Positions 9,633-55,665 of a DNA stretch of 64,000 bases are shown in pieces. The position numbers were made by a program, and so were the translations under genes. Position 1 is the stretch's first letter. The number at the start of each line of letters is the position of its first letter. The notes beneath the pieces are model-generated. The model was not told the origin of the DNA. It saw only the letters and a program-made list of their open reading frames with translations, and did no database searches. Source of the stretch: Acidobacteriota bacterium (GTDB lineage: Bacteria; Acidobacteriota; UBA4820; DSQY01); the NCBI GenBank assembly GCA_049968315.1, contig JBMFRA010000008.1:662-64661 (forward strand). The letters run 5' to 3'.

Positions 9633-9634
9633 CC

Positions 9635-10975: not shown

Positions 10976-10989
10976 GGAAAGGGACGTTC

Positions 10990-11140: not shown

Positions 11141-11183
11141 GCCCCTACTACGGCTACTGCCTCTATCTAAGGGGAGAGATCCT

Positions 11184-12307: not shown

Positions 12308-12311
<4 letters not shown>
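11184..12311 (+). CDS. dnaN: DNA polymerase III beta sliding clamp
   Basis: Start METRIEAR at 11184 preceded by AGGGGAGAG; the listed ORF start at 11016 is an upstream extension. Three-domain beta-clamp sequence. Confidence 0.93.
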
Positions 12312-15804
<3,493 letters not shown>

Positions 15805-15853
15805 GCCCCCGGGCACCCCGAGACGGTGCCCCGGGCCACCGAGGAACGCGACG

Positions 15854-18382
15854 ATGAAAGAAGAGCCCCAACTCTTCGACCGCCCCCAGCCGGTGAACCT
15901 CGAGGAAGAGCTCAAGCGCAGCTACCTCGATTACGCCATGAGCGTCATCATCGGGCGGGCCCTTCCCGACGCCCGGGACGGCCTCAAGCCGGTCCACCGG
16001 CGGATCCTGTACGGCATGTACCTGGGGGGCAACCACTGGAACCGCCCCTACAAGAAGTCCGCCCGCATCGTGGGCGACGTCATGGGGAAGTTCCACCCCC
16101 ACGGCGACGCCGCCATCTACGACACCCTGGTCCGGATGGCCCAGGACTTCTCCATGCGCCACCCCCTGGTGGACGGACAGGGCAACTTCGGCTCCATCGA
16201 CGGCGACGCCCCGGCGGCCATGCGGTACACCGAGGTCCGCATGGCCAAGCTGGCCCACGCGCTGGTTTCGGATATCGAGAAGGCCACCGTGGACTTCGTC
16301 CCCAACTACGACGGGGAGGAGACGGAGCCGGTGGTCCTCCCCTGCCTCTTCCCCAACCTGCTGGTCAACGGGTCGGCGGGGATCGCCGTGGGGATGGCCA
16401 CCAACATCCCGCCCCACAACCTGGGGGAGGTGGCCGAGGCGGTGGTGGCCCTGGTGGAACGTCCGGAGATCACCACCCCCGAGCTCATGAAGATCCTGCC
16501 GGGGCCGGACTTCCCCACCGCGGGCCTCATCCTGGGGCGGGAGGGGATCCGCCAGGCGTACGAGACCGGCAAGGGACTGATCAAGGTCCGGGCCCGGGCC
16601 CACGTGGAAGAGCTGAAGAAGGACCGGGAGGCCATCGTCGTCACCGAGGTTCCCTACCAGGTCAACAAGGCGAACCTCATCGAGAAGATCGCCGGCCTGG
16701 TGAAGGAAAAGAAGATCACCGGGATCACCGACATCCGGGACGAGTCGAGCCGGGAGGGGATCCGGGTAGTTCTGGAGCTGGGCCGGGGGGAGATCGGCGA
16801 CATCGTCCTCAAGCAGCTCTACAAGTTCACGGAGATGGAGACGACCTTCGGCGTCCAGCTCCTGGCCATCTCCGGGGGCCAACCCAAAACCTTCACCCTG
16901 AAGGGGCTCCTCTCGGCCTTCGTGGACCACCGGAAGGAGGTCATCGTCCGGCGGACCCGCTTCGACCTGGAGCGGGCCAAGGAGCGGGCCCACGTCCTGG
17001 AAGGCCTCACCGTGGCCCTGGACCACCTGGACGCCGTCATCGCCCTGATCCGCGCCGCCAAGGACCCCGAAGAGGCCCGGGCCGGCCTCATGGAGAAGTT
17101 CTCCCTCTCGGAGATTCAGGCCAAGGCCATCCTGGACATGCGGCTCCAGCGGCTCACCGGACTCGAGCGGGACAAGATCCTGGCCGAGTACCGAGAGGTC
17201 CTCCAGAAGATCGCCGAGCTCTCGGAGATCCTGGGGAGCGAGGCACGGGTCAAGGCGATCCTCTGCGACGAGATGCGGGCCCTCAAGGCCGAGTTCGCCG
17301 ACGGCCGCCGGACCCAGATTGTGGACGACACGGGGGAGATCTCCATCGAAGAACTCATCGCCGACGAGGAGATGGTGATCACCGTCACCCACGGCGGCTA
17401 CATCAAGCGGACGGCGCTGGCCGAGTACCGGAGCCAGCACCGCGGCGGCAAGGGGCGTTCGGGGATGGCGCCCCGGGAGGACGACTTCGTCGAGCACCTC
17501 TTCGTCGCCATGAACCACGACCGCTTCCTCTTCTTCAGCAACCAGGGGAAAGTGTATGGCCTCAAGGTCTACGAGCTCCCCGAGGCGGGGACGGCGGCCC
17601 GGGGCCGGGCCCTGGTGAACCTCCTGGCCCTGGGGGCCGAGGAGAAGATCCTGGGCCTCCTCTCCGCCCGGGGCTGCTTCGACGCCAACCACTTCCTGGT
17701 GCTGGCCACCCGGCAAGGGCTCGTGAAGAAGACCCCCATGGACGAGTTCGAATCCATCCGGGCCAGCGGCAAGATCGCCATGACCTTCCGGGAGGGGGAC
17801 GAGCTGGTGGGGGCCGGCATTTCCGACGGTACCGGCCACATCTTCCTGGCCACCCGGGAAGGGCGGTGCATCACCTTCCCCGAGGAGGAGGTCCGCCCCA
17901 CCGGAAGGACGAGCCAGGGGGTCCAGGGGATCCGGCTCAAGGAGGGCGACGTGGTGGTGGAGATGGAGATCCTCCGGGGCACGGTGGTGGAGGCGGTGGA
18001 CGAAGAGGGTGCCGGCCGAGCCGTCTCGGGGGAGGGCGACATCCTCACCGTCACCGAAAAGGGCTTCGGCAAGCGGACGCCCCTGGCCCACTACCGCATC
18101 CAGCGCCGGGCCGGCACCGGAATCCTGAACCTCCTCATGACCCCCAAGAACGGTCCCGTGGTGGGCGGCCTCCACGTCCGGGAAGAGGACGAGATCGTGC
18201 TGGTCACCGCCCAGGGCCAGCTCATCCGCACCCCCGCCAAGGGCATCTCCCGCATCGGCCGCCGGACCCAGGGCCTCAAGGTCATCCACCTCGACGAGGG
18301 CGACAAGGTGGTGTCGGTGGCGAAGCACGCCCCCGAGGGGTCGGAGAACGGAAACGGAGAAGGCCCGCCGGAGGCCCGCTGA
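15854..18382 (+). CDS. gyrA: DNA gyrase subunit A
   Basis: The ~130-aa N-terminal segment (YAMSVIIGRALPDARDGLKPVHRRIL ... HPHGD ... AMRYTEVRMA) carries the active-site Tyr and QRDR region. C-terminal beta-pinwheel repeats follow. Confidence 0.97.
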   Translation: MKEEPQLFDRPQPVNLEEELKRSYLDYAMSVIIGRALPDARDGLKPVHRRILYGMYLGGNHWNRPYKKSARIVGDVMGKFHPHGDAAIYDTLVRMAQDFSMRHPLVDGQGNFGSIDGDAPAAMRYTEVRMAKLAHALVSDIEKATVDFVPNYDGEETEPVVLPCLFPNLLVNGSAGIAVGMATNIPPHNLGEVAEAVVALVERPEITTPELMKILPGPDFPTAGLILGREGIRQAYETGKGLIKVRARAHVEELKKDREAIVVTEVPYQVNKANLIEKIAGLVKEKKITGITDIRDESSREGIRVVLELGRGEIGDIVLKQLYKFTEMETTFGVQLLAISGGQPKTFTLKGLLSAFVDHRKEVIVRRTRFDLERAKERAHVLEGLTVALDHLDAVIALIRAAKDPEEARAGLMEKFSLSEIQAKAILDMRLQRLTGLERDKILAEYREVLQKIAELSEILGSEARVKAILCDEMRALKAEFADGRRTQIVDDTGEISIEELIADEEMVITVTHGGYIKRTALAEYRSQHRGGKGRSGMAPREDDFVEHLFVAMNHDRFLFFSNQGKVYGLKVYELPEAGTAARGRALVNLLALGAEEKILGLLSARGCFDANHFLVLATRQGLVKKTPMDEFESIRASGKIAMTFREGDELVGAGISDGTGHIFLATREGRCITFPEEEVRPTGRTSQGVQGIRLKEGDVVVEMEILRGTVVEAVDEEGAGRAVSGEGDILTVTEKGFGKRTPLAHYRIQRRAGTGILNLLMTPKNGPVVGGLHVREEDEIVLVTAQGQLIRTPAKGISRIGRRTQGLKVIHLDEGDKVVSVAKHAPEGSENGNGEGPPEAR

Positions 18383-27259: not shown

Positions 27260-30106
27260 ATGGACGAGATCCGCATCCGGGGGGCCAGGGAGCACAACCT
27301 CAAGAACCTGAACCTCTCCCTGCCGAAAAACCGCCTGGTGGTCATCACCGGCCTCTCCGGCTCGGGGAAGTCTTCCCTGGCCTTCGACACCCTTTACGCC
27401 GAGGGCCAGCGGCGGTACGTCGAATCCCTCTCCGCCTACGCCCGCCAGTTTCTCGACCTCATGCAGAAGCCGGACGTGGACGCCATCGAGGGGCTCTCCC
27501 CCGCCATCTCCATCGAGCAGAAGTCCTCCTCCCACAACCCTCGGTCCACCGTGGGTACCGTCACGGAGATCTACGACTACCTCCGGGTCCTCTTCGCCCG
27601 GGTGGGCAGGCCTTACTGCCCCTCCTGCGGGCGTCCCATCGCCAGCCAGACCGTCCAGCAGATGGTGGACCAGATCCTGGCCCTTCCCGAGGGGGAGAAG
27701 GTCCTCATCCTCGCCCCCGTCATCCGGGGCCGGAAGGGGGAGTACCGGAAGCTCCTCCAGGACCTGTTGAAGGAGGGTTTTGTGCGGGCCCGGGTGGACG
27801 GAAAGGTCGTGGAGCTCCAGGCGGGGCTTCCTCTGGAACGGTACCGGGCCCACACCCTGGAGGTGGTGGTGGACCGCATCGCCGTGCGCGCCGGGGCCAA
27901 GGAGCGGATCACCGAATCGGTGGAGCTGGCCCTGGCCAAGGGAGAGGGGCTTCTCGTCGTCCACCGCCTTTCCGACGGGAGTGACCAGCTCTTCTCCGAG
28001 CACCTCTCCTGCCCCGCCTGCGGAACGGCCCTGCCGGAGATGGAGCCCCGGCTCTTCTCCTTCAACAGTCCCCACGGGGCCTGTCCGGAATGCGCGGGCC
28101 TGGGCGTCAAGATGGAGCCCGACCCCGCCAAGATCGTCCCCAACCCCTCCCTGAGCCTCAACCGGGGTGCCCTGGCCCCCTGGCCGGCGGAGGGGGGGTT
28201 CTGGTACCGGGAGATGCTCCAGGGCCTCGCCAAGGAGATGGGCTTCTCCATGGACGAACCCTTCGCCCGCCTTCCGGAGGAGGCGAGGCGGGCCATCCTG
28301 TACGGTACCAACGGCCGGCGCATCGCCTACGACGTGAGGCGGGACCGGAGCCGCTACCAGTTCGAGCACGCCTTCGAAGGGGTCATCCCCAACCTGATGC
28401 GGCGGTACCGGGAGACCAAGTCCGAATCCTCCCGGCAGGAGATCGAAGCCTTCATGTCCACGGCCCCCTGCCCCGCCTGCCAGGGCAGGCGGCTCAAGCC
28501 CGAGGCGCTGGCGGTGAAGGTGGGAGACTACTCCATCGCCGCCTTCACGGACCTCTCGGTACGGGAGGCCATGGGGGCCCTGGACCGCCTGGAGCTCACC
28601 CCCAAGGAACGGGAGATCGCAAAGCTTCCCCTGCGGGAGATCCGGAGCCGGCTCCACTTCCTGGACAACGTGGGCCTCGGGTACCTCACCCTCTCCCGGA
28701 CGGCCACCACCCTCTCCGGCGGGGAGAGCCAGCGGATCCGCCTGGCCACGCAGGTGGGAAGCCAGCTCACCGGGGTCCTCTACGTTCTGGACGAGCCCTC
28801 CATCGGCCTGCACCAGAAGGACAACCGGCGGCTGTTGGACACCCTCCGGGCCATGCGGGACCTCGGCAACACGGTGGTGGTGGTGGAGCACGACGAGGAG
28901 ACCATCCGGAGCGCCGACCACGTGGTGGACCTGGGGCCCGGCGCCGGCATCCACGGAGGGGAGGTGGTGGCCCAGGGGACGGTGGCGGACCTCTGCGCCG
29001 AGCCCCGTTCCCTGACCGGCGCCTACCTTTCGGGGCGGCGGGCCATCGAGGTCCCGCGGAGGCGGCGGAAGCCCAAGGGGACGCTGTGGATCCGGGGAGC
29101 GGCGGAGAACAACCTCCGCTCCATCGACGTGCCGGTTCCCCTGGGCGTCCTCACCGTCGTCGCCGGCGTCTCCGGGTCGGGGAAATCGACCCTGGTCCAC
29201 GAGGTGCTCTACAAGGGGCTGATGGCCAAGATCTACCACAGCCTGGAGCGGCCCGGAAAGCATCGGGGCCTGGAGGGGTGGGAGCGGCTGGACAAGGTGA
29301 TCGAAATCGACCAATCCCCCATCGGCAGGACGCCCCGCAGCAACCCCGCCACCTACACCGGCCTCTTCACCCCCATCCGGGACCTCTTCGCCGAAGTTCC
29401 GGAGGCCAGGGCCCGGGGCTACCGGCCCGGCCGCTTCTCCTTCAACGTGAAGGGGGGGCGGTGCGAGGCCTGCCAGGGCGACGGGGTCCTGAAGATCGAG
29501 ATGCATTTCCTCCCCGACGTGTACGTCACCTGCGACACCTGCAAGGGGAAGCGGTACAACCGGGAAACCCTGGAGGTGCGGTTCAAGGGCAGGACCATCG
29601 CCGAGGTCCTGGACATGACCGTCCGGGAGGCCCTGGAGTTCTTCGAGCGGGTGCCGCAGGTGCGGCGTAAGCTGGAACTCCTGGCGGACGTGGGGCTCGA
29701 CTACATCCACCTCGGCCAGCAGGCCACCACCCTCTCCGGGGGCGAAGCCCAGAGGATCAAGCTGGCCCGGGAACTCAGCCGCCGGGCCACCGGACAGACC
29801 CTCTACGTCCTGGACGAGCCCACGACGGGGCTGCACTTCGAAGACGTCCGCCACCTCCTGGCCGTCCTGAACCGGCTGGTGGACCAGGGGAACACCGTGG
29901 TGGTCATCGAACACAACCTGGACGTGGTGAAGTGCGCCGACGTCGTGCTGGAACTGGGACCGGAGGGCGGAGAGGGGGGCGGCCTCCTCATCGCCGCAGG
30001 GACGCCGGAGGAGGTGGCGGGGGTGGCGGACTCGCCCACCGGGGCCTACCTTCGGAACATTCTAGGGGGTTCCCATGAAGACCAGGCCCGAGCCGTACCG
30101 GATTAA
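27260..30106 (+). CDS. uvrA: Excinuclease ABC subunit A
   Basis: Two ABC ATPase modules ([14 protein letters not shown]; [11 protein letters not shown]), zinc-finger cysteines and two LSGGE signatures; 948 aa. Confidence 0.97.
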
Positions 30107-31448
30107 GATGGTGGAAGCGATCCGCCTGCCCGACCGGGCGGAGCGGGAGGAGCACCTCCAGCGGGCGGGGTACAACCTCTTCCGCGTGCCGGCAGAGGCG
30201 GTCTACGTGGACCTGCTGACCGATTCGGGAACGGGGGCCATGAGCGACCGGCAGTGGGCCTCCCTCCTCCGGGGGGACGAGTCCTACGCCCAGGCCCGCT
30301 CCTGGTTCCGCTTCTACGACGTGGTCCGCCGGCTCACCGGCATGGAGCACGTGCTTCCCACCCACCAGGGCCGGGCGGCGGAGAACATCCTCTTCTCCGA
30401 ACTCTCCGGTCCCGGCAAGGTCATCCCCAGCAACAACCACTTCGATACCACGAGGGCCAACATCGAATACTTCGGGGGGACGGCACTGGACCTGGTGATT
30501 CCCGAGGGCCGGGACGTGGCGGCCCAGCACCCCTTCAAGGGCAACATGGACCTCGGCGCCCTGGAGCGGACCCTCACGGAGTACGGCCGGGACCGGGTCC
30601 CGCTCTGCATGATGACCATCACCAACAACACCGGCGGCGGCCAGCCCGTTTCCCTGGAGAACATCCGGGGGGCCTCGGAGATCTGCCACCGCCACGGCGT
30701 ACCTTTCTTTCTCGATTGTTGCCGCTTCGCCGAGAACGCCTACTTCATCAAGAAGCGGGAGGCCGGCTGCGGGTCCATGGCCATCCCCGAGATCGCCTCC
30801 GCCATGTTCGCCTGCGCCGACGGGGCCACCATGAGCGCCAAGAAGGACGGCCTGGGGAACATCGGGGGCTTCCTGGCGCTGCGGGACGGCGCCCTGGCGG
30901 CCCGCCTCCAGAACCACCTGATCCTGAGGGAGGGCTTTCCCACCTACGGCGGCCTGGCGGGAAGGGACCTGGAGGCCCTGGCCACGGGGCTGGAGGAGGT
31001 CCAGGACGAGGCCTACCTCGAATGGCGCATCGGCCAGGTCCAGCGCTTCGGCAAGGCCCTGGCGGCGGAGGGGGTCCCCCTGTTGGAGCCGGTGGGCGGC
31101 CACGCCGTCTACCTCGACGCCCGGAGGGCCCTCCCCCACATCCCCGCCGAGGCCCTCCCCGCCCAGAGCCTGGCGGTGGAACTCTACCGGGAGGGGGCGG
31201 TACGGGGGGTGGAGATCGGATCCCTCATGTTCGGGCGGCGGGACGAGGGGGGGCGGTTCGTCCCCGCCGCCCTGGAGTTGGTCCGGCTGGCGGTGCCCCG
31301 GCGGGTCTATACCGACGCCCACCTGAGGTACGCCGCCGAGGTGGCGGGGGAGGTCCTCCGCCGGCGGGAGCGGCTCCGGGGCTTCCGCATCGTGGAAGAA
31401 CCCCCCTTTCTCCGGCACTTCACGGCGAAACTGGAGCCGCTGGCCTAG
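30075..31448 (+). CDS. Beta-eliminating lyase, tryptophanase / tyrosine phenol-lyase family (PLP-dependent)
   Basis: The N-terminal 110 aa ([13 protein letters not shown] ... [33 protein letters not shown] ... [15 protein letters not shown]) align closely to TnaA/Tpl. Confidence 0.85.
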
Positions 31449-31508: not shown

Positions 31509-32159
31509 ATGATCACCGGTTTCAACCAGGACGTCACCTACCGGGGGAAGGTCTACCACGTGCAGACCGAGGACCGGGGTCTCGGGAACCCCGTCATCGA
31601 GACGCTGATCTACGTGGGCGGCGAGATCCTCGCCTCCCTCAAGACCCCCTACGGGGAACTCCTCAAGGACGGCTACGACGAAAGCAAGGTGGCGGCCCTC
31701 CTGGAACAGCAGCACAAGAGGGTGGTGGTGGACGTCCGCCTGGGAAAGTACGCCAAGGAGAAGGCCCCCCAGGCCTTCGGGGAGGGGATCATCACCTCCC
31801 GGAGCCTGGACGAGGTCATCCTGGAGTACCTGACCAGCGAATCGGAGGGAGAGAAGCTCCAGGTGGAGATCCTGGACCAGTCGCCGCTGGTGGAGGGGGA
31901 GCGGGGCTGGTTCAACCTGCGGGCCACCACCCACATCTCCGCCTCTCCCCTGGAAGGGGCTGCGGTGGAGGTGTCTCTCGTGGGCAGTGACGGCCGCAGG
32001 GCCCTCCTGTTCTCCGGGAAAACGGGGCCGCAGGGCCTCTGCTCGGCGGCCTTCTCCCTCCCGCCGGGCTCCGGCGGATCCGTCGTGCTCCTCGAGGTGG
32101 CCCACCAACGGGGAACCTTCAGCCAGAAGGCCCTGGTGACCCGGGGAGGGACGCCGTGA
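31509..32159 (+). CDS. Hypothetical protein (216 aa), translationally coupled to thiS
   Basis: No recognizable motif. Its stop overlaps the thiS GTG start (GTGA). Confidence 0.5.
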
Positions 32160-32356
32160 AGGTCCGCCTCAACGGCCAGGAGCGAGATCTCCCGGAGGGA
32201 ACGCCCCTTTTGGAGCTGATCCGGAGCCTCGGCCTCGAGGCCTCCCGGGTCGCCGTGGAGCGCAACGGCCGGGTGGTGCCCAGGACCGACTACGCCGAAG
32301 AAATTCTTCGGGAGGGGGACCGCCTGGAGATCGTCCACTTCGTGGGCGGCGGGTGA
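32156..32356 (+). CDS. thiS: Sulfur carrier protein ThiS (ubiquitin-like beta-grasp, C-terminal GG)
   Basis: 66 aa ending EIVHFVGGG, nearly identical to the Bacillus ThiS C-terminus. GTG start. Confidence 0.8.
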
Positions 32357-32394: not shown

Positions 32395-32469
32395 TGGTGG
32401 GCGGTGGGGGATTCGAACCCGCGCCATCCTGCGTGTAAGGCAGGCGCTCTTCCGCTGAGCTAACCGCCC
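32395..32469 (-). tRNA. tRNA-Val (anticodon TAC)
   Basis: Reverse complement folds as acceptor GGGCGGT/ACCGCCC, D-arm GCTC..GAGC, anticodon stem CCTGC/GCAGG with loop CTTACAC, T-loop TTCGAAT and an encoded CCA. The T-stem has one C-C mismatch. Confidence 0.8.
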
Positions 32470-32614: not shown

Positions 32615-33058
32615 GTGCTGGAACAGATCGCGACGTCCTGGTGGCACATCCCTATTCTCATGGGGATGATCTTCGTCTACGGGATTCTCCTCAATCTCTT
32701 CCTTTTCAAGCCGGTGCAGGCGGTGATGGCCGAGCGGAAGCGGCGGATCGAGGAGTCCTCCACCCTTTCGGTCTCCTCCCGGGAGACCCTCCAGCGGCGC
32801 CTCGAAGAGTACGAGCAGGCGGTGCTGGAAGCGCACCGGAGGGCCACCCGGGTAAAAGAGGAAGCCCGGAGCCAGGCCACGGCCCACCGGGCTGAGGTCC
32901 TGGCCGCCGCCAAGGACGAGGTGGACCGGGAGCGGCGGCGGAAGGAGGCCGACCTGCAGGCCAACGTCGCCGAGGTGAAACGGGCGCTGGAGCAGGAGAT
33001 CCCCTCCATGGCCCGCCTGCTGGCCCAGAAGATCCTGGGGAGGGAGGTGGCGGTTTGA
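32615..33058 (+). CDS. atpF': F0F1 ATP synthase subunit b' (second b-type stator subunit)
   Basis: Single N-terminal TM helix followed by a long charged coiled coil; first gene of the atp cluster. Confidence 0.75.
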   Translation: MLEQIATSWWHIPILMGMIFVYGILLNLFLFKPVQAVMAERKRRIEESSTLSVSSRETLQRRLEEYEQAVLEAHRRATRVKEEARSQATAHRAEVLAAAKDEVDRERRRKEADLQANVAEVKRALEQEIPSMARLLAQKILGREVAV

Positions 33059-33657
33059 GAGAGAAGATCCTTTCCCTCCTGCTGACCCTGGGGCCCTCCG
33101 TGGTCCTCCTCGCCGGCGAGGCCGCCGAGGGGCACGGGGAAGAGGGTGGGTGGATGGCCCCCATCTGGGGCGTGCCCACCCTCGTCTGGCAGATCGCCAA
33201 CCTCCTGCTGGTGGTGGTCCTTTTCGTCTACCTTCTGAGGCGCCCGGCGCCGGAATTCTTCGCCGGCCGGGCCAAGGAGATCCAGGAGCTCCTGGAACGG
33301 GCCCTCCGGGACAAGGAAGAGGCCCTGCTCCGCCTGAAGGAGGTGGACGAAAAGATGGCCCGCCTTTCCGGCGAGGTGGAGGCCATCGAGAAGGCCGCCA
33401 GGGAAGCGGCGGAGGCCGACCGGGCAAAGGTGGCGGAGGAGGCCGAGGCGGCGAAGGTCCGGATCCGGGAAGAGGCCGTGCAGGAGATGGAGCGGCAACT
33501 TGTCCAGGCCCGGCGGGAACTGAAGGCCTACGCGGCGGACCTGGCCATCCAGGCCGCCCGGGAGATCCTGGCCAAGAACCTGAGCCCCGAAGACGAAGCC
33601 CGGATCCAGGACCGGTTCCTCTCCCTGATGGAGGAAAGCCATGGGCGGCGTGGGTAA
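33055..33657 (+). CDS. atpF: F0F1 ATP synthase subunit b
   Basis: N-terminal TM helix plus an EEAxxxR-rich helix; the start overlaps the atpF' stop. Confidence 0.8.
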   Translation: MREKILSLLLTLGPSVVLLAGEAAEGHGEEGGWMAPIWGVPTLVWQIANLLLVVVLFVYLLRRPAPEFFAGRAKEIQELLERALRDKEEALLRLKEVDEKMARLSGEVEAIEKAAREAAEADRAKVAEEAEAAKVRIREEAVQEMERQLVQARRELKAYAADLAIQAAREILAKNLSPEDEARIQDRFLSLMEESHGRRG

Positions 33658-34174
33658 GCGGTACGCCGAGGCCCTCCTGGACGTCCTCCAAGGCGCCCCG
33701 GAAGAGGCGGTCCTCTCGGACGTGAAGGCCTTTGCGGGCTGGCTCCGGGAGGTTCCGGGGCTGCGGAAGGCGCTGGAGAACCCCGGCGTTCCCGCGGCGG
33801 TGAAAGAGAAGGTCGTCCGGGAGCTGGCCGCCCGGGGCGGTTTCCAGGAGGCCACCACCCGGTTCGTCCTGCTGGTGGTGGCCCACCGGCGGATCCGCCA
33901 GTGGGACGAGATCGTGGCGGCCTTCCAGACCCTGCTGGACGACCGCCACGGGATCCTCCGGGGCCAGGTGGTGACGGCCCGTCCCCTGGAGGGGGCGCGC
34001 CTGGCGGCCCTGGCCGCCCGCCTGGAGAAGGTCTTCGGAAAGCCCGTGCGGCTGGACGCGCGGGTGGCCCCCGAAGTGCTGGGGGGCATCCAGCTCCAGA
34101 TCGGTTCGACGGTGTACGACGGCTCCGTGGCGGGGGCCCTTCGCTCCCTCCGCGACGTCCTCGTGAAGGGGTAG
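33641..34174 (+). CDS. atpH: F0F1 ATP synthase subunit delta (OSCP)
   Basis: Typical delta N-terminus (YAEALLDV) and C-terminal LDGSVAG-type motif. Confidence 0.88.
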   Translation: MGGVGKRYAEALLDVLQGAPEEAVLSDVKAFAGWLREVPGLRKALENPGVPAAVKEKVVRELAARGGFQEATTRFVLLVVAHRRIRQWDEIVAAFQTLLDDRHGILRGQVVTARPLEGARLAALAARLEKVFGKPVRLDARVAPEVLGGIQLQIGSTVYDGSVAGALRSLRDVLVKG

Positions 34175-34180
34175 GCGAGC

Positions 34181-35701
<1,521 letters not shown>

Positions 35702-35704
35702 GCC

Positions 35705-36568
35705 ATGCCGAACCTGAGGGATATCCGGCGGCGGATCCGGTCGGTCCAGAGCACCCAGCAGATCACCAAGGCCATGAAGATGGTGGCCGCGGCGAGGCTG
35801 CGGCGGGCCCAAGACCGGATGCTCTCCGCCCGCCCGTACGCCGACAAGATGCTGGAGGTGCTCAACTCCCTGGCCTCCAGAACCGATCCCCAGGTCCATC
35901 CCCTGTTGGCCCTCCGGGAGGAGAAGCGGGTTCGGCTGGTGGTCTACACCGGCGACCGGGGGCTCTGCGGCGCCTTCAACACCAACATCCTGAGGTTCAC
36001 CCTCAAGCAGGTGGCCGAACTCCAGGCCGCCGGGCGGGAGGTGACCCTCGACTTCGTGGGCCGCAAGGGGCGGGACTTCTTCCGGCGCCGGTCCTACGAG
36101 ATGGGCGGACAGTGGGTGGGGAAGTTCACCAAGGTCCGCTACGAAGACGCCGAGGAGATCGCCGGCGTCCTCACCGGCCACTTCGTGGAAGGCCGGTGCG
36201 ACGCGGTGTACCTCATCTACAACCACTTCAAGAGCGTCATCGCCCAGAAGGTCGTGGTGGAGCGGCTCCTCCCCATCCCGCGTCTGGAGCCGGAGGAGAA
36301 GGCCCCCTTCCTGGACTACCTCTACGAGCCGACCCCCGAGGAGCTGTTCGGAACGCTCCTTCCTCGGCACGTCACCTTCCAGGTGTATCGGGCCATGCTG
36401 GAGTCGGCGGCGGCGGAGCACGCTGCCCGCATGACGGCGATGGAGAGCGCCACCAACAACGCCCGGGACATGATCGACCGCTTGACCCTCTACGCCAACC
36501 GGGTGCGTCAGGCGGCGATCACCAAGGAGATCATCGAAGTCGTGAGCGGTGCCCAGGCGCTGGGCTGA
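35705..36568 (+). CDS. atpG: F0F1 ATP synthase subunit gamma
   Basis: Conserved N-terminus IRRRIRSVQSTQQITKAMKMVAAARLRRAQ and the C-terminal helix. Confidence 0.95.
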   Translation: MPNLRDIRRRIRSVQSTQQITKAMKMVAAARLRRAQDRMLSARPYADKMLEVLNSLASRTDPQVHPLLALREEKRVRLVVYTGDRGLCGAFNTNILRFTLKQVAELQAAGREVTLDFVGRKGRDFFRRRSYEMGGQWVGKFTKVRYEDAEEIAGVLTGHFVEGRCDAVYLIYNHFKSVIAQKVVVERLLPIPRLEPEEKAPFLDYLYEPTPEELFGTLLPRHVTFQVYRAMLESAAAEHAARMTAMESATNNARDMIDRLTLYANRVRQAAITKEIIEVVSGAQALG

Positions 36569-38104
<1,536 letters not shown>

Positions 38105-38107
38105 GCC

Positions 38108-38536
38108 ATGGCGACCTTCGAGATCCCGAAGAAGCTCCTCCTGACCATCGTCACCCCCGAGAGGCACCTCGTCCACGAGAGCGTGGACGAGGTGGTCCTT
38201 CCGGGGGTGGAGGGGTACCTCGGAGCCCTCCCCGGACACACCGAACTCTTGACGTCCCTCCGGATTGGTGAGATAAAATACAGGGTCGGGAAAGAGTGGC
38301 GGTACCTCGCCGTGTCCTGGGGCTTCGTCGAGATCCTCCCGGACCGGGTGACGGTGCTGGCCGACCTGGCGGAAAAGGCCGAGGAGATCGACCTCGAGCA
38401 GGCCAGAGTGGAAGCCGAATCGGCCCGGGCGCGCCTGAAGCACCCCGACGCCGATTTCATGAAGGCCCAGATCGCCCTGGAGCAGGCGCTGGTGCGGATG
38501 CAGGTGGCCGCCAAGGCGGCTCCCCTGCCGCGGTGA
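38108..38536 (+). CDS. atpC: F0F1 ATP synthase subunit epsilon
   Basis: Beta-sandwich N-terminus and a C-terminal helical hairpin. Confidence 0.9.
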   Translation: MATFEIPKKLLLTIVTPERHLVHESVDEVVLPGVEGYLGALPGHTELLTSLRIGEIKYRVGKEWRYLAVSWGFVEILPDRVTVLADLAEKAEEIDLEQARVEAESARARLKHPDADFMKAQIALEQALVRMQVAAKAAPLPR

Positions 38537-39302: not shown

Positions 39303-39440
39303 GGGGGAAGGCCCCGCCGGCGCCGGGGGGAGACCGGGGAGGGGATGGGCCCTTCCCGGAGGAGAAGAGGAAGCGGGATGGCAGGTTGGCGGCGGGGCCC
39401 CCGCCGCCCACAGGGGCGCAGGAAAAGGCAGGAGGAAGCC

Positions 39441-41189
39441 ATGGAACAACTGGGACAGGAAGACCCGAAGAGCACCCAGCGCTTTCTGCTGGCCATGGTG
39501 GCCATGATGGCCGTCTTGGGCCTCTGGTCCCTCTTCATGGGGGGGCCCGCCGCGCCGCCCCCCGCGGCCCCCGAACCCCGCACCGCCGCCCCGGCGGAGA
39601 AGCCCGCCGCCGTGGAGCCGGCGCCGGCGCCCGGCGCCGGCGAGGCGGCGGTGGCCGATACGGAGGAGCGGCGGGTGATCCTGGAGAACGACGATCTCCT
39701 GGTGGAGGTGTCCAACCGGGGCGCCGTCCTGACCCGGGTGGTGCTGAAGAAGTACCGCATGCCCGGGGCCGACCCCGACGACCTCGTCTCGCCCCTGGCC
39801 CGGATCACCGGCCGCTACCCCCTGGCGGTGGAGACGGGGGATCCGGCCTTCGACCAGGCCGTGTCCAAGGCGCTGTTCCACGTGGAACGCAAAACGGGTC
39901 CCGCGGGGGAGCAGGTGGTGGAGCTGGCGTGGGCCGACGGGGCGGGCAACGCCCTTCGGAAGGTCCTGACGCTCCCCGCCGCGGGGTACCTCGCGGGCCT
40001 GGAGACCAGCGGCCGGAAGGGCGGCACCGTCCTCTCCCCCATTCCGCTGCGCTGGGGTCCCGGTTTCGGAACCCTCCAGAAGAGCCAGGCCAAGAACCGG
40101 TACTACCAGCAGGAGTACGTGGGACTCTTGGAGGGGACCTCCTTCCGTAAGGTCAAGCGGGCGGGGAAGGTGACGGGGGACCGCCCCCGGGAGGTGGAGG
40201 GCTTCGGGGAGAAGGCTCCGGTGGCCTGGGCCGCCATCAGCAACAACTACTTCGCCGCCGCCTTTTTGCCCGAGGGGACCCTGCCGCGGGTGAAGGTGGT
40301 GACGGAGGCCCTCTCTCCCGAGCTGCAGAAGGTGCACCCCGCCGAAAACGACGTGACCCTGGTGGTGGCCTTCCCCGGCCGGGGGCGTCTCTTCATGGGA
40401 CCCAAGCAGTGGGGCCTCCTGGCGGGCGTGGCGCCCCAGTTCAACCGCCTCACCGACTGGGGGTGGCTCACCCCCATCTGCGGCGCCCTCCTCTGGGGCC
40501 TGAAGTCCCTGTACCGGTGGGTGGGCAACTACGGCATCGCCATCATCCTCATCACGCTGGTCATCAAGCTGGCCTTCTACCCCCTCACCCAGGGCAGCAT
40601 GGTGAAGATGAAGCAGATGGGCGACGCCATGAAGCGGCTCAAGCCCCAGATCGACCGGATCAAGGCCAAGTACAAGAAGATGGGCCTGGACATGGCCACC
40701 CGCCAAAAGATGAACGAGGAGATGATGGCCCTCTACCAGAAGGAGGGCATCAACCCCCTGGGCCAGATGAGCGGGTGCCTCCCCCTCCTCCTCCAGATGC
40801 CCATCTTCTTCGCCCTCTTCGAGCTCCTGCCGCGGGCCATCGAGCTCCGGGGAGCGCCCTTCTTCGGCTGGATCCAGGACCTCTCGGTTCCGGACCCCTA
40901 CTACATCACCCCCATCCTCATGGGGGTCTCCATGATCGCCTCCACCCGCATGACCGGCTCCCAGGGACTGGAGGGGGCGCAGAAGGTCATGCTCTGGTTC
41001 ATGCCCCTCATGTTCACCTGGTTCTGCCTCTGGGCCCCGGCGGGGCTCACCCTCTACTGGCTCGCCAACAACCTGCTGACCATGGGCCAGCAGGCCCTCA
41101 TCAACCGGCAGGCGGCGGCCAGGGCGGCCGAAGCCGAGAAGGGGCGGCGGTCCACCCCCAAGGGCCCTTCCCGGCCTTCCCGTGGTTGA
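39441..41189 (+). CDS. yidC: Membrane protein insertase YidC
   Basis: Start MEQLGQE at 39441 with an AGGAGG RBS. N-terminal TM, periplasmic domain and the conserved C-terminal 5-TM core (GCLPLLLQMPIFFALF). Confidence 0.93.
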   Translation: MEQLGQEDPKSTQRFLLAMVAMMAVLGLWSLFMGGPAAPPPAAPEPRTAAPAEKPAAVEPAPAPGAGEAAVADTEERRVILENDDLLVEVSNRGAVLTRVVLKKYRMPGADPDDLVSPLARITGRYPLAVETGDPAFDQAVSKALFHVERKTGPAGEQVVELAWADGAGNALRKVLTLPAAGYLAGLETSGRKGGTVLSPIPLRWGPGFGTLQKSQAKNRYYQQEYVGLLEGTSFRKVKRAGKVTGDRPREVEGFGEKAPVAWAAISNNYFAAAFLPEGTLPRVKVVTEALSPELQKVHPAENDVTLVVAFPGRGRLFMGPKQWGLLAGVAPQFNRLTDWGWLTPICGALLWGLKSLYRWVGNYGIAIILITLVIKLAFYPLTQGSMVKMKQMGDAMKRLKPQIDRIKAKYKKMGLDMATRQKMNEEMMALYQKEGINPLGQMSGCLPLLLQMPIFFALFELLPRAIELRGAPFFGWIQDLSVPDPYYITPILMGVSMIASTRMTGSQGLEGAQKVMLWFMPLMFTWFCLWAPAGLTLYWLANNLLTMGQQALINRQAAARAAEAEKGRRSTPKGPSRPSRG

Positions 41190-42534
41190 AGCCGGAGGAA
41201 CCCTGGTGGCGGAGGCCACCCCGCCCGGTCGGGGCGGCCTCCGGGTGGTTCGGGTGAGCGGCCCCCTGGCCGCCCCCATCCTCCAGCGGCACTTCCGCCC
41301 CGCGGGGCCCCGCTCCCCCTGGGAGGCTCCCCGCAGGTTGTGCGCCGGGGACGTTCTGTCGGCGGACGGCCGGCTCCTGGACCGGGCGCTGGCGGTCTTC
41401 CTGCGGGCACCCCGCTCCTTTACGGGGGAGGACACGGCGGAGTTCCACCTCCACGGCTCCGGCGGCGTCGTGGAGGCGGTGGTCGCCCTGTGCCTCGAAG
41501 CGGGGTGCCGGCGGGCGGCCCCCGGAGAGTTCTCCTGGCGGGCCTTCCTCAACGGCAAGCTGGGCCTCCTGGAAGCCGAGGCCCTGGACGGATTGGCCGC
41601 CGCCTCCACCCGGGAGGCGGCCCAGCGGGCCGCCGCCGTCCTGGCCGGTGACCTGAGGCGCAAGCTCGAGGGCCTTCGGGAGGGGATTCTGGACCTCCAG
41701 GCACGGTGGGAGGCCCAGGTGGACTTCCCGGAGGACGCCGGGGAGGGGGCCCCCGAAGAGGAGCGGGCGCTCCTGGGCCGCCTCGTCGCGGAAGCCGATG
41801 CCCTGGACCGGTCGGGGCAGGCCCTTCCGCGCCTGCGGGAGGGCTGGTCCGTGGCCCTGGCGGGCCCCCCCAACTCGGGAAAGTCTTCCCTCTTCAACGC
41901 CCTCTTGAACCGCGAGCGCGCCCTGGTCAGCCCCCACCCGGGGACCACCCGGGACGTGTTGGAGGAGACCCTGGAGGTGGACGGCCTTCCCCTGGTGCTC
42001 CGGGACACGGCGGGCCTTCGGCAGGAGCCGGGGGAGGAGGTGGAGGCCCTGGGTATGGAGGTGGGGCTGCGGGCCGCCGCCACCGCCGATGCCGTCCTTT
42101 TCGTCTACGACGGGGCCCGGGGGTGGGACGGCGAGGCCCAACGGGCCCTCCGGATCCTCCCGGCCCCGCCCCGCTGGATCGCCGGCAACAAGGGCGACCT
42201 CTTTGTGGGTCCGGTCCCTCCGGGGCACCTTCGGCTCAGCGCCCGGACGGGGGAGGGGCTCGCCGCGCTGGTCCGGGAGATGGGGCGCTGGCTCCGGGGG
42301 CAGCTCCCTCGGGTGGAGGCGGGACCGGTCTCCCTGCGGCAGGCGGAGGCGGTAGGGCGCCTTCGGCGGGCCCTCGGGGAGGCGGAGGGCGACCTGGCGG
42401 GGGGGGCGGGGATCGAGGTGGCCGCCGACGCGTTGGCCCGCGCCCGGCGGGCCGTGGAGGAGGCCCTCTTCGGGGAGGGAAGACCCGACGACCTCTACGG
42501 GCGGATCTTTTCCCGCTTCTGCATTGGAAAGTGA
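41182..42534 (+). CDS. mnmE: tRNA modification GTPase MnmE (TrmE)
   Basis: G-domain GPPNSGKSSLFNALL ... DTAGLR and the C-terminal CIGK motif. Confidence 0.93.
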   Translation: MVEAGGTLVAEATPPGRGGLRVVRVSGPLAAPILQRHFRPAGPRSPWEAPRRLCAGDVLSADGRLLDRALAVFLRAPRSFTGEDTAEFHLHGSGGVVEAVVALCLEAGCRRAAPGEFSWRAFLNGKLGLLEAEALDGLAAASTREAAQRAAAVLAGDLRRKLEGLREGILDLQARWEAQVDFPEDAGEGAPEEERALLGRLVAEADALDRSGQALPRLREGWSVALAGPPNSGKSSLFNALLNRERALVSPHPGTTRDVLEETLEVDGLPLVLRDTAGLRQEPGEEVEALGMEVGLRAAATADAVLFVYDGARGWDGEAQRALRILPAPPRWIAGNKGDLFVGPVPPGHLRLSARTGEGLAALVREMGRWLRGQLPRVEAGPVSLRQAEAVGRLRRALGEAEGDLAGGAGIEVAADALARARRAVEEALFGEGRPDDLYGRIFSRFCIGK

Positions 42535-42618
42535 CCGCCGCCGCGCCGCAGGCCCCGGGCCTGCAGGGGGCGGGGGCGGGCTTTCCCCGGCCCGTATCCC
42601 CTGTGGTTCAATGGTGCC

Positions 42619-44451
42619 ATGGCGAAGGAGACCTGCGACGCGGTGGTGGTGGGCGGCGGGCACGCGGGGGCGGAGGCGGCCCGCGTGCTGGCCCTCAAGG
42701 GCCTCGATACCGTCCTGGTCACCGATTCCCTGAAGGCCGTGGGGCGCATGTCCTGCAACCCCTCCATCGGCGGGCTGGGGAAGGGGCACCTCGTGCGGGA
42801 GCTGGACGCCCTGGGGGGCCTCATGGCCCGGGCGGCCGACGGGACCGGCATCCACTTCCGGCTGCTGAACGCCAGCAAGGGGCCGGCGGTCCAGGGGCTG
42901 CGAAGCCAGAACGACCGGGAGGCCTACGCCCGGGCGGTGGCGGAGGCCCTTGAGAAGACGGCGGGGCTCAGGCTCCGGGAGGGCCGGGTCCGGGACCTCC
43001 TCCTGTCGGGGGGGAGGGTTCACGGCGTGGGCCTGGAAGACGGCACGGAGCTCCGGGCCCGGGTGGTGGTGGTCACGGCGGGGACCTTTCTGGGCGGCCT
43101 GCTCCACGTGGGGGAAGAGCGGACCGCCGGGGGCCGCGTGGGGGAGTTCGCCGCCGAAGACCTCTCCCGTTCCCTCCGGGCGGCGGGGCTTCCCCTGATT
43201 CGGCTCAAGACGGGAACTCCCCCCCGGCTCCACCGCCGCTCCATCCAATGGGAGCGCACCCTCCCCCAGCCGGGGGACCCGGCCCCCGAGCCCTTTTCCC
43301 TCCTCTCCGAGCCCTTTCCGGCGCTCCCGCAGGTTCCCTGCCACCTGACCCGGACCACGGAGGAGACGCGCCGCATCATCCTGGCCAACCTCCACCGGTC
43401 GCCCCTCTTCTCTGGGGCCATCCAGGGGCGGGGCCCCCGGTACTGCCCCTCCATCGAGGACAAGGTGGTGCGCTTTCCCCACAACGAGAGCCACCAGGTC
43501 TTCCTGGAGCCCGACGGCCTCGGCAGCGAGGAGGTCTACCCCAACGGAATCTCCACGTCCCTCCCGCGGGACGTCCAGGAGGCGGTGGTCCGCTCCATCC
43601 CCGGCCTGGAGGAGGCCCGCATCGTCCGGTACGGCTACGCCGTGGAGTACGACGCGGTGGATCCGACGGCGCTCCGGCTGACCCTGGAAGCCAAGGGCGT
43701 GGCGGGCCTCTACCTGGCGGGGCAGGTGGTGGGGACCACGGGGTACGAGGAGGCGGCGGCGCTGGGGTTCTGGGCGGGCCTCAACGCCGCCAGGGCCCTC
43801 CGGGGGGAGGAGCCCTTCGTGCTGGGGCGGGAGGAGGCCTACCTGGGGGTGATGGTGGACGACCTGGTGACCCGGGGCGTTACCGAGCCTTACCGCATGC
43901 TCACCTCCCGGGCGGAGTACCGGCTCCTCCTGGACCGCCACAGCGCCTACCGGCGGCTCCTGCCCCGTACCGCCGCCGACGGCCTTTGCCCTCCCGGGGA
44001 CCGGAAGCGCCTCCAGGAACGGGAGCGGCGGGTGGCGGCGGCGCGGCGCACCCTGGAGGAGACCCGGGTGGAGGTGGGGGGGGAGGTCCTTTCCCTGGCC
44101 CGGATCCTCTCCCGTCCCCAAGTCGGGATGGAGGACCTGCCGGTCCACCCGCCGGAGCTTCGGGCCCTCGACCGGTGGGAGGTCCTCTACGTGGAGTCGG
44201 AGGTGAAGGGGGAGGGCTACCGGGAGCGGGCCCGGGCCGAGGCCCGGCGCCTCCTGGCGGCGCGGCGGACCCGCATCCCCCCCGGTTTCGACTTCGGGGC
44301 CCTGCCGGGCCTCAGCCGGGAGGTGCGGGAAGTGCTGCAGCGGGTGGCCCCCGCCAACCTGGACCAGGCCTCGCGGATCCCGGGGATGACGCCGGCGGCG
44401 CTCCTCCGGCTCCACTACGCCCTGGACCGCGGAGGCTCCCATGGAGAATGA
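42619..44451 (+). CDS. mnmG: tRNA uridine 5-carboxymethylaminomethyl modification enzyme MnmG (GidA)
   Basis: FAD-binding [15 protein letters not shown] and the PSIGG motif; 610 aa. Confidence 0.96.
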
Positions 44452-45019
44452 CCCGCGCCTCGAGGCCTACCTGGATCTCCTCTTCGCCTGGAACCGCGCG
44501 GCGGGCCTCACCGCCTTCCGCAGCCGCCGGGAGGTCCTGGAGCGGGGGGTCGCCCCCTCGCGGCTGGCCCTTCCCTTTCTCCCGGAGGAAGGGCGGGTCC
44601 TGGACGTCGGATCGGGGGGCGGCATCCCCGCCCTCCCCCTCGCCCTGGCCCGCCCGCGCCTTTCGTGGGTGCTGGCCGAACCGGCGCCGGCCAAGGCGGT
44701 CTTCCTGGAGGAGGTGGCCCGGCGGCTGAACCTGGCCTGGGAGGTCCGGGCCCGTCCGGCGGAGGAGGTCCTCCGGAGCGGGGAGCGCTGGCGTGCGGCG
44801 ACCCTCCGCGGGATCTTCCCCCGAAAGGGGACCTTCCGGCGGCTGGCCTCGGCGCTGGAGCCGGGGGGGGTCCTGCTGGTGTGGACCGGCGGGGCGCGCC
44901 TCGAAGCCTGCCGGGAAATCTTCGGCGGATTGGGCCTTGCGGCGGAGGAGCACCCCTGCCCGGGGGCCGGGGTGGTCCTTTTGGCCGGCCGTGTTCCACG
45001 TGGAACATCCGGAGGCTGA
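44441..45019 (+). CDS. rsmG: 16S rRNA (guanine527-N7)-methyltransferase RsmG (GidB)
   Basis: SAM motif [15 protein letters not shown] and the typical N-terminus ([12 protein letters not shown]). Confidence 0.9.
44992..45007. other. parS: parS centromere-like site (TGTTCCACGTGGAACA, perfect 16-bp palindrome)
   Basis: Matches the parS consensus tGTTnCACGTGaAACa at 15 of 16 positions. It lies inside the last codons of rsmG, 100 nt upstream of parA. Confidence 0.8.
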
Positions 45020-45107
45020 GAGCCCGGCGGGAGGGCCGGGGCGGGATTCGACCCCGGCGTCTTTCCCTCGGCCTTCCGGTATGGCACAATGCGCCGGGAG
45101 GAGCGCC

Positions 45108-45869
45108 GTGGGAACCATCATCGCCGTCGCCAACCAAAAGGGCGGGGTCGGAAAGACCACCACCGTCATCAACTTGGGAGCCTCCTTGGCCGCCGCGGAA
45201 AAGCGGATCCTTCTGGTGGACTTCGACCCCCAATCCAACTGTACGTCGGGGCTGGGGGTGTCCTCCCCCGACGGCCGGAACGTCTACGGGTGCCTCTCGG
45301 GCTCCGCCGGCCCGGAGGAAGTGCTAGTGTCCTGCGGCCTGCCCAACCTCCAGCTCCTTCCCGGAGCCGTCTCCCTGGCGGGGGCCGAGGTAGAACTGGC
45401 CGGGGTTCCCCAGCGGGAGTTCGTCCTCCGGAACCTCCTGGGGCCCCTCAAGGACCGCTACGACTACATCCTGGTGGACTGCCCCCCCTCCCTGGGCCTG
45501 CTCACCCTCAACGCCCTGGTGGCGGCGGACGGGGTGCTCATCCCCATCCAGGCGGAGTTCTTCGCCATGGAGGGGGTTTCGCTCCTCCTGCGTACCCTGG
45601 AACGGGTCCGCGAGTCCCTCAACCCCGAGCTGGCCGTCACCGGCGTCCTCCTCACCATGGTGGACGAGCGGACCAACCTCGCCCGCCAGGTCTCCGCCGA
45701 GGTCCAGCGCTTCTTCGGGGGGCGGGTCTTCCGGGCCTCCATCCCCCGCAACGTCAAGCTCGCCGAGGCCCCCTCCTTCGGAAAGCCGGCCCTCCTGTAC
45801 GATGTGGCCTCCCGGGGGGCCCAGGCCTACCTGCACGTGGCCAAGGAGTTCCTCTCCCATGAACCCTAA
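45108..45869 (+). CDS. parA: Chromosome partitioning ATPase ParA (Soj)
   Basis: Deviant Walker A ANQKGGVGKTTT. GTG start at 45108, 5 nt after AGGAGG; an upstream in-frame ATG at 45081 is an alternative. Confidence 0.93.
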   Translation: MGTIIAVANQKGGVGKTTTVINLGASLAAAEKRILLVDFDPQSNCTSGLGVSSPDGRNVYGCLSGSAGPEEVLVSCGLPNLQLLPGAVSLAGAEVELAGVPQREFVLRNLLGPLKDRYDYILVDCPPSLGLLTLNALVAADGVLIPIQAEFFAMEGVSLLLRTLERVRESLNPELAVTGVLLTMVDERTNLARQVSAEVQRFFGGRVFRASIPRNVKLAEAPSFGKPALLYDVASRGAQAYLHVAKEFLSHEP

Positions 45870-46704
45870 GAACGTCCTGGGACGGGGCCTGGACGCCCTC
45901 ATCGGCGCGCCGGGTCCCGAAGCCAAGCGGGTCCTCGAGGTGGAGATCCACCGCCTGAAGCCCAACCCCCGGCAGCCCCGCACCGCCTTCGATTCGGAGG
46001 CCCTGGACGAGCTGGCGCGCTCCATCGCCGAGAACGGGATCCTCCAGCCCATCCTGGTGCGCCCCGCCGACGGGGGCTACGAGATCATCGCCGGGGAGCG
46101 CCGGTGGCGGGCGGCCCAGCAGGCCGGCCTCCACCGTGTCCCTGTCCTGGTCCGGGAGGCCGCCGATCCCCAGTTGCTGGAACTGGCGCTGGTGGAAAAC
46201 CTCCAGAGGGCGGACCTCAACCCCGTGGAGGAGGCCCGGGCCTACCGGCTCCTGGTGGAGGATCTGGGGCTGACCCAGGAGGAGGTGGCCCGAAAGGTGG
46301 GGAAGGACCGGGCTACGGTGGCCAACGTGCTTCGGCTCCTCCACCTCCCCGAGCCGGCCCTCCGGGCCCTGGAGGAAGGGCGCCTCACCGTGGGCCACGC
46401 CAAGGCCCTCCTCTCCCGGCGGCGCCGGGAGGAGCAGGCCGCCCTCCTGGAGGCCATCCTTCGCAGGGGCCTTTCGGTCCGGGAGGCGGAGGCCTTCCAG
46501 CTCCCCGCCAAGGCGGCCGCCCCTGAGCGGAGAAGCGACCCGGACACCGCCGCGGCGGAGAAGACCCTGAGCCGCCACCTGGGGCTTCCCGTCACCATCC
46601 GGCGCCGGGGGAAGGGCGGGCGCCTGGAGGTGGCCTTCCGCAACGAAGAGGAGTTGCAGGGGCTCTACGAGCGGCTTCTCGGCGAGAGGAGGAGGACCCC
46701 ATGA
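45859..46704 (+). CDS. parB: Chromosome partitioning protein ParB (Spo0J)
   Basis: ParB box [10 protein letters not shown] and an HTH region. ATG at 45859 overlapping the parA end. Confidence 0.93.
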
Positions 46705-51661: not shown

Positions 51662-51677
51662 GAACGCTGTCTCCTTC

Positions 51678-55659: not shown

Positions 55660-55665
55660 CCGCCC

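Follow-up and report, generated by a model that had tools for sequence, protein, structure and literature searches.

A RomY-like gene overlapping thiS in an acidobacterial origin region, and the linkage of the two genes across Acidobacteriota

The window described here is a stretch of 64,000 nucleotides from an Acidobacteriota bacterium (assembly GCA_049968315.1, contig JBMFRA010000008.1, positions 662 to 64,661, forward strand). At 31,509 to 32,356 it carries two genes in tandem, the second of which, thiS, has a start codon that overlaps the stop codon of the first. The first gene encodes a 216-amino-acid (aa) protein that is a member of the RomY family, with a C-terminal half unlike that of Myxococcus RomY. 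The linkage of such romY-like genes to thiS in Acidobacteriota is real and old: across several classes an acidobacterial form of RomY is tied to thiS, ancestrally to thiS-thiG, often by an overlap of start and stop codons and once by fusion. We favour reading the two as genes with separate functions that stay linked through shared transcription and translational coupling, and give this reading a probability of about 0.6.

Both families were already known, RomY having been described in 2022 and the thiS gene being canonical. The searchable literature yielded no account of a RomY N-terminal domain (RomY-N) joined to a beta-sandwich of macroglobulin (MG)-like type, of a phylum-wide linkage to thiS or thiS-thiG, or of the fusion; a 2006 survey of the gene neighbourhoods of prokaryotic ubiquitin-like (Ubl) proteins makes no mention of a RomY-thiS linkage. 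A large set of acidobacterial ‘hypothetical proteins’ gains a name.

The gene pair and its products

The features of the pair, all on the plus strand, are as follows, with the evidence for each in brackets:

31509..32159 (+), romY-like gene, 216 aa, ATG start (open reading frame (ORF), homology, composition)
31509..31751 (+), RomY N-terminal domain, residues 1-81 (NF053858 match, alignment, AlphaFold2 (AF2) model)
31857..32141 (+), predicted C-terminal seven-strand beta-sandwich, residues 117-211 (AF2, Foldseek)
32145..32149 (+), GGAGG, Shine-Dalgarno-like element of thiS, within the 3′-terminal part of the romY-like gene (sequence reading)
32156..32159 (+), GTGA, overlap of the thiS start and the romY-like stop (sequence reading)
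32156..32356 (+), thiS, 66 aa, GTG start, C-terminal GGG (TIGR01683, PF02597)

An earlier note on this stretch, made from its letters alone, had seen no recognizable motif in the 216-aa protein. Its residues 1-81 match NCBIfam model NF053858 (RomY_Nterm, ‘RomY N-terminal domain-containing regulatory protein’) on model positions 1-81 of 83, with 101.3 bits against a curated cutoff of 50 (E=2.9e-29). Representatives of the Holophagae, Polarisedimenticolia and Thermoanaerobaculia clades score 103-114 bits on the same model. The protein has 1068 homologs of about 212-219 aa, with conservation over the full length; one of them (P0001, locus tag ACP5VN_03080, from an Acidobacteriota metagenome-assembled genome) is 100% identical to it. 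An exact-match look-up of the window protein in the contig collection gave no record. The three-part architecture, RomY-N, linker with helix, and sandwich, is conserved full-length in some 1000 acidobacterial proteins. The wider RomY N-domain family forms 2627 clusters at 50% identity that vary in their C-terminal parts, and the domain is N-terminal in all 150 representatives listed. The N-domain carries the invariant motif M-x-TG-x-N-x-DV...HVQTED-G..NP-IETLIY-GGE, and 28 of its positions are invariant in our alignment A2, with or without thiS adjoining.

An AF2 model built from 58 homologs (mean predicted local distance difference test score, pLDDT, 86.5) predicts an N-terminal alpha/beta domain (1-77), a disordered segment (86-95), a helix (100-112) and the seven-strand sandwich (117-211). 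The N-domain, with strands at 5-11, 14-22, 29-36 and 39-47 and helices at 49-53 and 58-77, is predicted to be compact and globular, with pLDDT mostly above 88 per 10-residue block; the strands of the sandwich mostly reach 84-97 per block. Structure prediction, which the earlier note had proposed as a check, placed one half of the protein by fold and not the other. With Foldseek the C-terminal domain matches the MG2 domain of human alpha2-macroglobulin (2p9r; E=7e-5, template modelling score normalized to the target, TM(target), 0.62), its matches being only of generic immunoglobulin (Ig)/MG-like kind, and the N-domain finds no match by fold in the PDB. Pfam gives no significant match on the whole protein or on its C-terminal half alone, precomputed annotation places PF11974 on several homologs, and a PDB sequence search with a 58-sequence profile finds no relative. 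We take the C-terminal half to be a predicted beta-sandwich of the alpha2-macroglobulin MG type. No enzymatic domain is found in the protein with Pfam or NCBIfam. The invariant columns of A2 include neither Cys nor Lys, K207 falling just short of invariance, and A2 shows no nucleotide-binding motif.

Myxococcus xanthus RomY (MXAN_5749, 188 aa) is a co-GAP in the MglA/MglB GTPase switch of cell polarity, stimulating the GTPase-activating protein (GAP) activity of MglB on MglA-GTP. This function lies largely in its conserved N-terminal domain, and residues 7-90 are reported as compact and globular (PMC9481161). It was discovered through phylogenomic co-occurrence with MglA, MglB, RomR and RomX in a set that included Acidobacteria. 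The acidobacterial homologs in the S1 Table of that study, Cabther_A0581 (Chloracidobacterium) and Acid345_1316 (Koribacter), both co-occur with MglA, RomR and RomX, and the former also with MglB (PMC9481161). A 2026 paper still takes RomY as an activator of the MglB GAP (PMC13408092). The window protein resembles M. xanthus RomY in having a domain of about 80 residues at its extreme N-terminus that is predicted to be compact and globular. It differs in length (216 against 188 aa), in having a predicted folded MG/Ig-like sandwich where the other has a low-confidence tail with a short motif, and in the coupling of its gene to thiS, whereas for M. xanthus romY no neighbouring gene has been reported as functionally relevant. 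As a member of this family, the protein would bind MglA-GTP and the MglB dimer through its N-domain and boost MglB GAP activity, and its MG-type sandwich, standing where Myxococcus RomY has a disordered tail, may bind partners or direct localisation.

The 66-aa product of the second gene begins MKVRLNGQ and ends EIVHFVGGG, which we take to be the Bacillus subtilis type of ThiS C-terminus. It scores 80.8 bits on the equivalog model TIGR01683 (cutoff 37.45) and 62.6 bits on PF02597 (cutoff 22.5), and has 4645 homologs; by these family scores it is the canonical thiamin sulfur carrier ThiS. Two other carrier identities were rejected. MoaD/SAMP1 reaches only E of about 0.03, against 7e-23 for the ThiS model, and TtuB is a poorer structural match: the ThiS domain of the related fusion protein described below has TM(target) 0.61-0.66 to TtuB and 0.83-0.89 to ThiS structures.

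The protein shares with the ThiS of the thiazole pathway (B. subtilis 1TYG with ThiG; Escherichia coli 1ZUD with ThiF; Geobacter metallireducens 3CWI) its length of 66 aa and its TIGR01683 assignment. In relatives thiG follows the orthologs, and structures 3cwi, 1tyg_B and 1zud_2 can be superposed on the ThiS domain of the related fusion. The setting is different: the gene is coupled to that of a polarity regulator, it has no thiamin pyrophosphate (TPP) riboswitch, and no thiF, thiG, thiH or thiO is found in the 64 kb. The earlier note had likewise seen no thiF, thiG or thiO nearby, and neither these nor thiH, thiC, thiE or thiD turned up among the scanned window proteins. The library scans covered the window apart from the atp ORFs at 32615-38536 and most of about 6473-9635, 51661-52928 and 54145-59602, three stretches where composition-based gene calls are ambiguous. 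When seven ThiG sequences were run against the window with tblastn, the best E was 0.011, at the level of noise. By family membership and orthology, ThiS would be adenylated and thiocarboxylated by a ThiF/MoeB-type enzyme and would pass its sulfur to ThiG, with both partners encoded outside the window.

The thiS GTG lies at 32156-32158 and the romY-like TGA at 32157-32159, so that the overlap reads GTGA, just as the earlier note had it, and the GGAGG ends 6 nt before the GTG. GC content at third codon positions is 0.92 in the romY-like ORF and 0.88 in thiS, a coding-type composition (window GC 70.5%). From the GTGA overlap and the internal GGAGG, both read from the DNA, we judge the two genes to be translationally coupled. 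The 60 bp between the upstream tnaA-like gene and the romY-like gene hold no promoter-like or terminator-like site, and uvrA and the tnaA-like gene may be co-transcribed with the pair. No sigma70-like site was detected on the plus strand ahead of the romY-like gene or thiS, and neither the window nor 11 related loci showed a TPP riboswitch; such a riboswitch is accordingly rejected as the cause of the linkage. Having no detected promoter or riboswitch, thiS would depend on the upstream gene for its expression.

Linkage across Acidobacteriota

A scan of one genome per species gave a best 80 loci, all acidobacterial, encoding relatives of the 216-aa protein at 32-91% identity; 76 of them had enough downstream sequence to be judged. 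In 30 of the 76, thiS lies directly downstream of the romY-like gene, at distances from overlapping to 110 bp, and in one more (L037) it lies directly upstream. The co-occurrence with ThiS-like genes that the earlier note had suggested looking for is thus found as adjacency in 31/76 loci. The remaining 45 have no thiS next to the romY-like gene, and tblastn found no thiS remnants in loci without the gene. An overlapping or abutting geometry is seen in 12 related loci (L001-L006, L008, L009, L011, L012, L027 and L064) and also in L083. The adjacent ThiS proteins score as TIGR01683, and the Gly-Gly motif is kept in 30/30 of the RomY-adjacent ThiS orthologs listed.

The pair occurs in at least six flanking contexts. 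In the following lines R is the romY-like gene, S is thiS, and < or > gives the direction of a flanking gene; contexts 5 and 6 come from look-ups of other protein hits, outside the species scan:

1 (the window group), uvrA-tnaA, then R-S, then tRNA-atp
2 (Polarisedimenticolia, seven loci), dgcN-like<, then R-S-thiG
3, moaA< with a molybdenum cofactor (Moco) riboswitch, then R-S, then tRNAs-tig-clpP-clpX-lon
4, sirB1-like>, then R-S
5 (Pyrinomonadaceae), nuoA<, then R-S-thiG, with a 4-bp overlap in L083
6, nuoA<, then R-S, in a divergent RomY-like subgroup with HVQSE replacing HVQTED

The order uvrA, tnaA, romY-like, thiS is kept in the closest relatives (L001-L009). The Moco riboswitches (L061 5723-5846(-), L070 5841-5965(-), L072 5741-5877(-)) stand ahead of the divergent moaA; they are the only riboswitches found and, being on the opposite strand, do not control the pair.

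Directly after thiS comes thiG in L013, L014, L017, L019, L021, L027 and L064 (Polarisedimenticolia), where ThiG was confirmed by PF05690 with 361 bits, and in L083-L085 (Pyrinomonadaceae). Like the thiS-thiG units of thiSGH or thiFSGH operons, these relatives have the two genes in tandem; unlike them, the tandem is preceded, and often overlapped, by a romY-like gene, and the lineage of the window keeps only the romY-thiS front. Of the 31 adjacent pairs found in the species sample, 24 have no thiG. Because relatives hold thiS-thiG directly after the romY-like gene, the arrangement without thiG in the window is a derived rearrangement.

On a neighbour-joining tree built from the RomY-like proteins the paired state is paraphyletic, with at least four independent nested losses, and no member of the Holophagae clade has the pair. 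That the two genes can also be split is seen in L089, where a DUF5675 gene (4495-4956, 153 aa) lies between a divergent RomY-like gene and thiS. Most simply, the history began with an old romY-like, thiS, thiG cluster, from which thiG left Thermoanaerobaculia-like lineages, the window's included, and thiS left others. The window locus would be a remnant of that cluster.

Two side observations concern the related loci. Orthologs of ThiS in L037 (5549-5875) and L067 (about 4621-4866) read past the Gly-Gly (QGGSPRLR; QGGRPARGEFPETAAG). These extensions could be sequencing or assembly errors; if real, they would call for proteolytic trimming before the carrier can be activated. In Holophagae (L029, L043, L046, L052, L054, L056, L065, L066, L077, L080 and others), a conserved gene of cluster c1 lies directly upstream of the romY-like gene. 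Its protein has a receiver domain at the N-terminus and, after it, a long region rich in Pro, Glu and Asp, an architecture that resembles RomR. The c1 gene is itself preceded by c3, which encodes a conserved protein of about 440 aa without a family match.

The earlier note had proposed that the 216-aa protein is a novel acceptor or adaptor for the Ubl carrier. More fully, the protein might be a dedicated acceptor, adaptor or activator for ThiS as a Ubl modifier or sulfur donor, either replacing the functions of ThiF and ThiG or serving as a conjugation target as in TtuB/SAMP-type systems. The adjacency and coupling of the genes would fit such a role, as would the failure to find an E1 or ThiG in the 64 kb, the nearly invariant K207, and the extended ThiS proteins of L037 and L067, which would need processing. 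Like the carriers of TtuB/TtuC/TtuA (Thermus), SAMPs/UbaA (Haloferax) and CysO/Mec+, ThiS is a small beta-grasp protein with a C-terminal Gly-Gly, and in Ubl conjugation systems an orphan carrier gene can use an E1 encoded elsewhere. Those systems differ from the present locus, which has no E1, JAMM protease, TtuA-type transferase or cysteine synthase nearby and whose carrier scores as ThiS proper. Searches for an E1-like activator, a JAMM protease or a dedicated transferase found none among the scanned window proteins or in the flanks that related loci have in common.

The partner itself is a RomY-family member. An invariant Cys, a P-loop/Rossmann motif and a rhodanese domain are all lacking from it, and the predicted folds are a small alpha/beta domain, for which the PDB offers no match, and an Ig-like sandwich. 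In over half of the family no thiS adjoins the gene, and ThiG, the conventional acceptor, comes directly after thiS in relatives. Two doubts had been raised along with the proposal, that the 216-aa frame might not be conserved and that thiS might belong to a conventional thi arrangement in relatives: the 1068 homologs dispel the first, and the thiS-thiG pairs bear out the second. With the partner a RomY-family member and thiS canonical, the idea of a novel Ubl acceptor largely dissolves, and we consider it the least probable of the explanations weighed here, very improbable indeed.

A different proposal is that RomY-N in Acidobacteriota is not a polarity factor at all, having an older thiamin or sulfur role from which Myxococcus RomY was later co-opted. 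The size of the domain family and its variable C-terminal parts agree with this, as does the spread of the thiS(-thiG) linkage within the phylum. Also in line with it, neither mglA nor mglB was found near any locus; tblastn with MglA on the window and 92 loci gave no match, which is weak negative evidence, and no mglA, mglB, romR or romX was found among the window proteins scanned. The discovery of RomY by co-occurrence with MglA, MglB, RomR and RomX, with Acidobacteria in the set (PMC9481161), speaks for a polarity role, as do the RomR-like architecture encoded ahead of the romY-like gene in Holophagae and the strong conservation of the N-domain regardless of thiS adjacency. We regard the proposal as quite improbable.

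A natural fusion and the reading of the pair

In one lineage RomY-N and ThiS are joined in a single reading frame:

L081 5549-6109 and L086 8001-8561, RomY-N::ThiS single-ORF fusions (proteins P0228, P0270, P0271, P0272)

Contigs ERZ25067874 contig_100 and SRR27437743_9266 belong to this lineage. In P0228 (186 aa) RomY-N is joined through a Lys-rich linker to a whole ThiS that ends VIHFVGGG; the beta-sandwich is absent. The architecture is found in four clusters at 89-95% identity from three data sources. These differ by in-frame indels, including a 9-residue duplication, and the reading frame is kept. No convincing Shine-Dalgarno sequence precedes the internal ATG. The gene sits in a nuoA< context of Blastocatellia-like kind, in a lineage of low GC (about 0.40). 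We take the fusion as real. In an AF2 model of P0228 from an unpaired alignment both domains have pLDDT of about 80-90 and the linker about 30 (disordered); the predicted template modelling score (pTM) is 0.46, and no confident docking of the two domains is seen. Superposition of the C-terminal domain on the ThiS structures 3cwi, 1tyg_B and 1zud_2 gives TM(target) 0.83-0.89.

A second candidate, P0273 (L082 2032-2958, 308 aa), was rejected. This RomY-like protein, which carries the NCBI label ThiS, has a truncated beta-sandwich that runs into ThiS. Only the last ~28 ThiS residues are joined and the protein continues past the GGG, so that a deletion or a chimeric assembly is its probable origin. 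In L082 thiG lies 4 kb downstream of its gene.

The favoured reading, two separate functions under shared expression, would involve no direct biochemical interplay between the RomY-like protein and ThiS. That the genes can be separated is seen in the 45/76 loci without thiS, the repeated losses on the tree and the DUF5675 insertion. Reliance of thiS on the gene ahead of it for expression would account for thiS remaining next to the romY-like gene after thiG had moved. If the tie is one of expression only, translational coupling can hold unrelated genes together for longer than true pathway partners. Several observations weigh against this reading. The pair outlasts what is expected of unrelated neighbours, through all its flanking contexts. 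On the break-up of the cluster, thiS kept its place beside the romY-like gene and parted from its biochemical partner thiG. One lineage encodes the fusion, with its frame kept and no obvious internal Shine-Dalgarno sequence, and mglA and mglB were not found in the window or in the related loci, the tblastn query being MglA only. That the pair persists without thiG in several contexts, and that a natural fusion exists, leaves room for some functional link.

Such a link could be a direct partnership, in which RomY-N binds the beta-grasp ThiS in Acidobacteriota. By analogy with beta-grasp Ras-binding domains, ThiS might be an extra subunit of the MglA/MglB/RomY module, or the contact might tie polarity and motility control to sulfur or thiamin status. 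The pair is kept in Thermoanaerobaculia-like, Polarisedimenticolia and Blastocatellia lineages and in the HVQSE subgroup, in six or more contexts; it survives the departure of thiG in 24/31 of the sampled pairs; and the start/stop overlap is conserved. The natural fusion adds to this, with its maintained frame and with a C-terminal domain that has a bona fide ThiS fold (3cwi and 1tyg_B, TM(target) 0.83). On the other side, the pair has been lost repeatedly, and the Holophagae lack it and have a receiver-domain gene upstream instead. AF2 leaves the domains of the fusion undocked (pTM 0.46, disordered linker), and a single stop-codon loss can fuse overlapping neighbours. ThiS keeps every canonical feature of a sulfur carrier, with thiG next to it in two classes, and no paper linking RomY to thi genes was found in the searchable literature. 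We hold direct partnership to be possible but unlikely.

The beta-grasp fold of ThiS is the fold by which Ras-binding domains read GTP-bound Ras, a point of resemblance only. The more specific proposal that ThiS is a physical partner of RomY-N and doubles as a component or input of the MglA/MglB polarity switch, as a prokaryotic counterpart of those domains, is doubtful, more so than contact as such. A functional tie would connect a Ubl sulfur carrier with a Ras-like GTPase polarity module.

Genomic surroundings

The immediate neighbours of the pair are as follows:

27260..30106 (+), uvrA, upstream, same strand (ORF, family match)
30075..31448 (+), tnaA-like beta-eliminating lyase, upstream, same strand (ORF, family match)
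32395..32469 (-), tRNA-Val(tac), convergent, the 3′ boundary of the unit (ARAGORN; Rfam RF00005, 66.3 bits)

The convergent tRNA-Val, which the earlier note had also placed after the pair, lies 38 bp past the thiS stop, and a promoter-like site lies near it on the minus strand at 32508-32480. The window is a chromosomal origin region with dnaA, dnaN, recF, gyrB, gyrA, pyr genes, radA, uvrA, the tnaA-like gene, the pair, tRNA-Val and the atp operon, and further with yidC, mnmE, mnmG, parA, parB, bactofilin, glmS, glmU and DivIVA genes. Origin markers lie at 9635-18382 (dnaA, dnaN, recF, gyrB, gyrA) and 39345-47108 (yidC, mnmE, mnmG, parA, parB, bactofilin).

In the stretches with ambiguous gene calls, GC at second codon positions is high and long ORFs overlap on the two strands. 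Of the ORFs scanned within them, 57445-58215 gave no match and 55666-56850 encodes a glycosyltransferase.

Downstream of the tRNA gene, the ORFs at 32615-38536 encode 147, 200, 177, 506, 287, 506 and 142 aa. By their order and lengths alone, the atp operon seems to hold two b-type subunit genes followed by delta, alpha, gamma, beta and epsilon; the genes for subunits a and c, absent ahead of it, would be encoded elsewhere. Upstream of the pair, the lyase (30075-31448) scores 643 bits on a tryptophanase subfamily model and falls below the equivalog cutoffs of tryptophanase and of tyrosine phenol-lyase; the start of its gene overlaps the end of uvrA by 32 bp.

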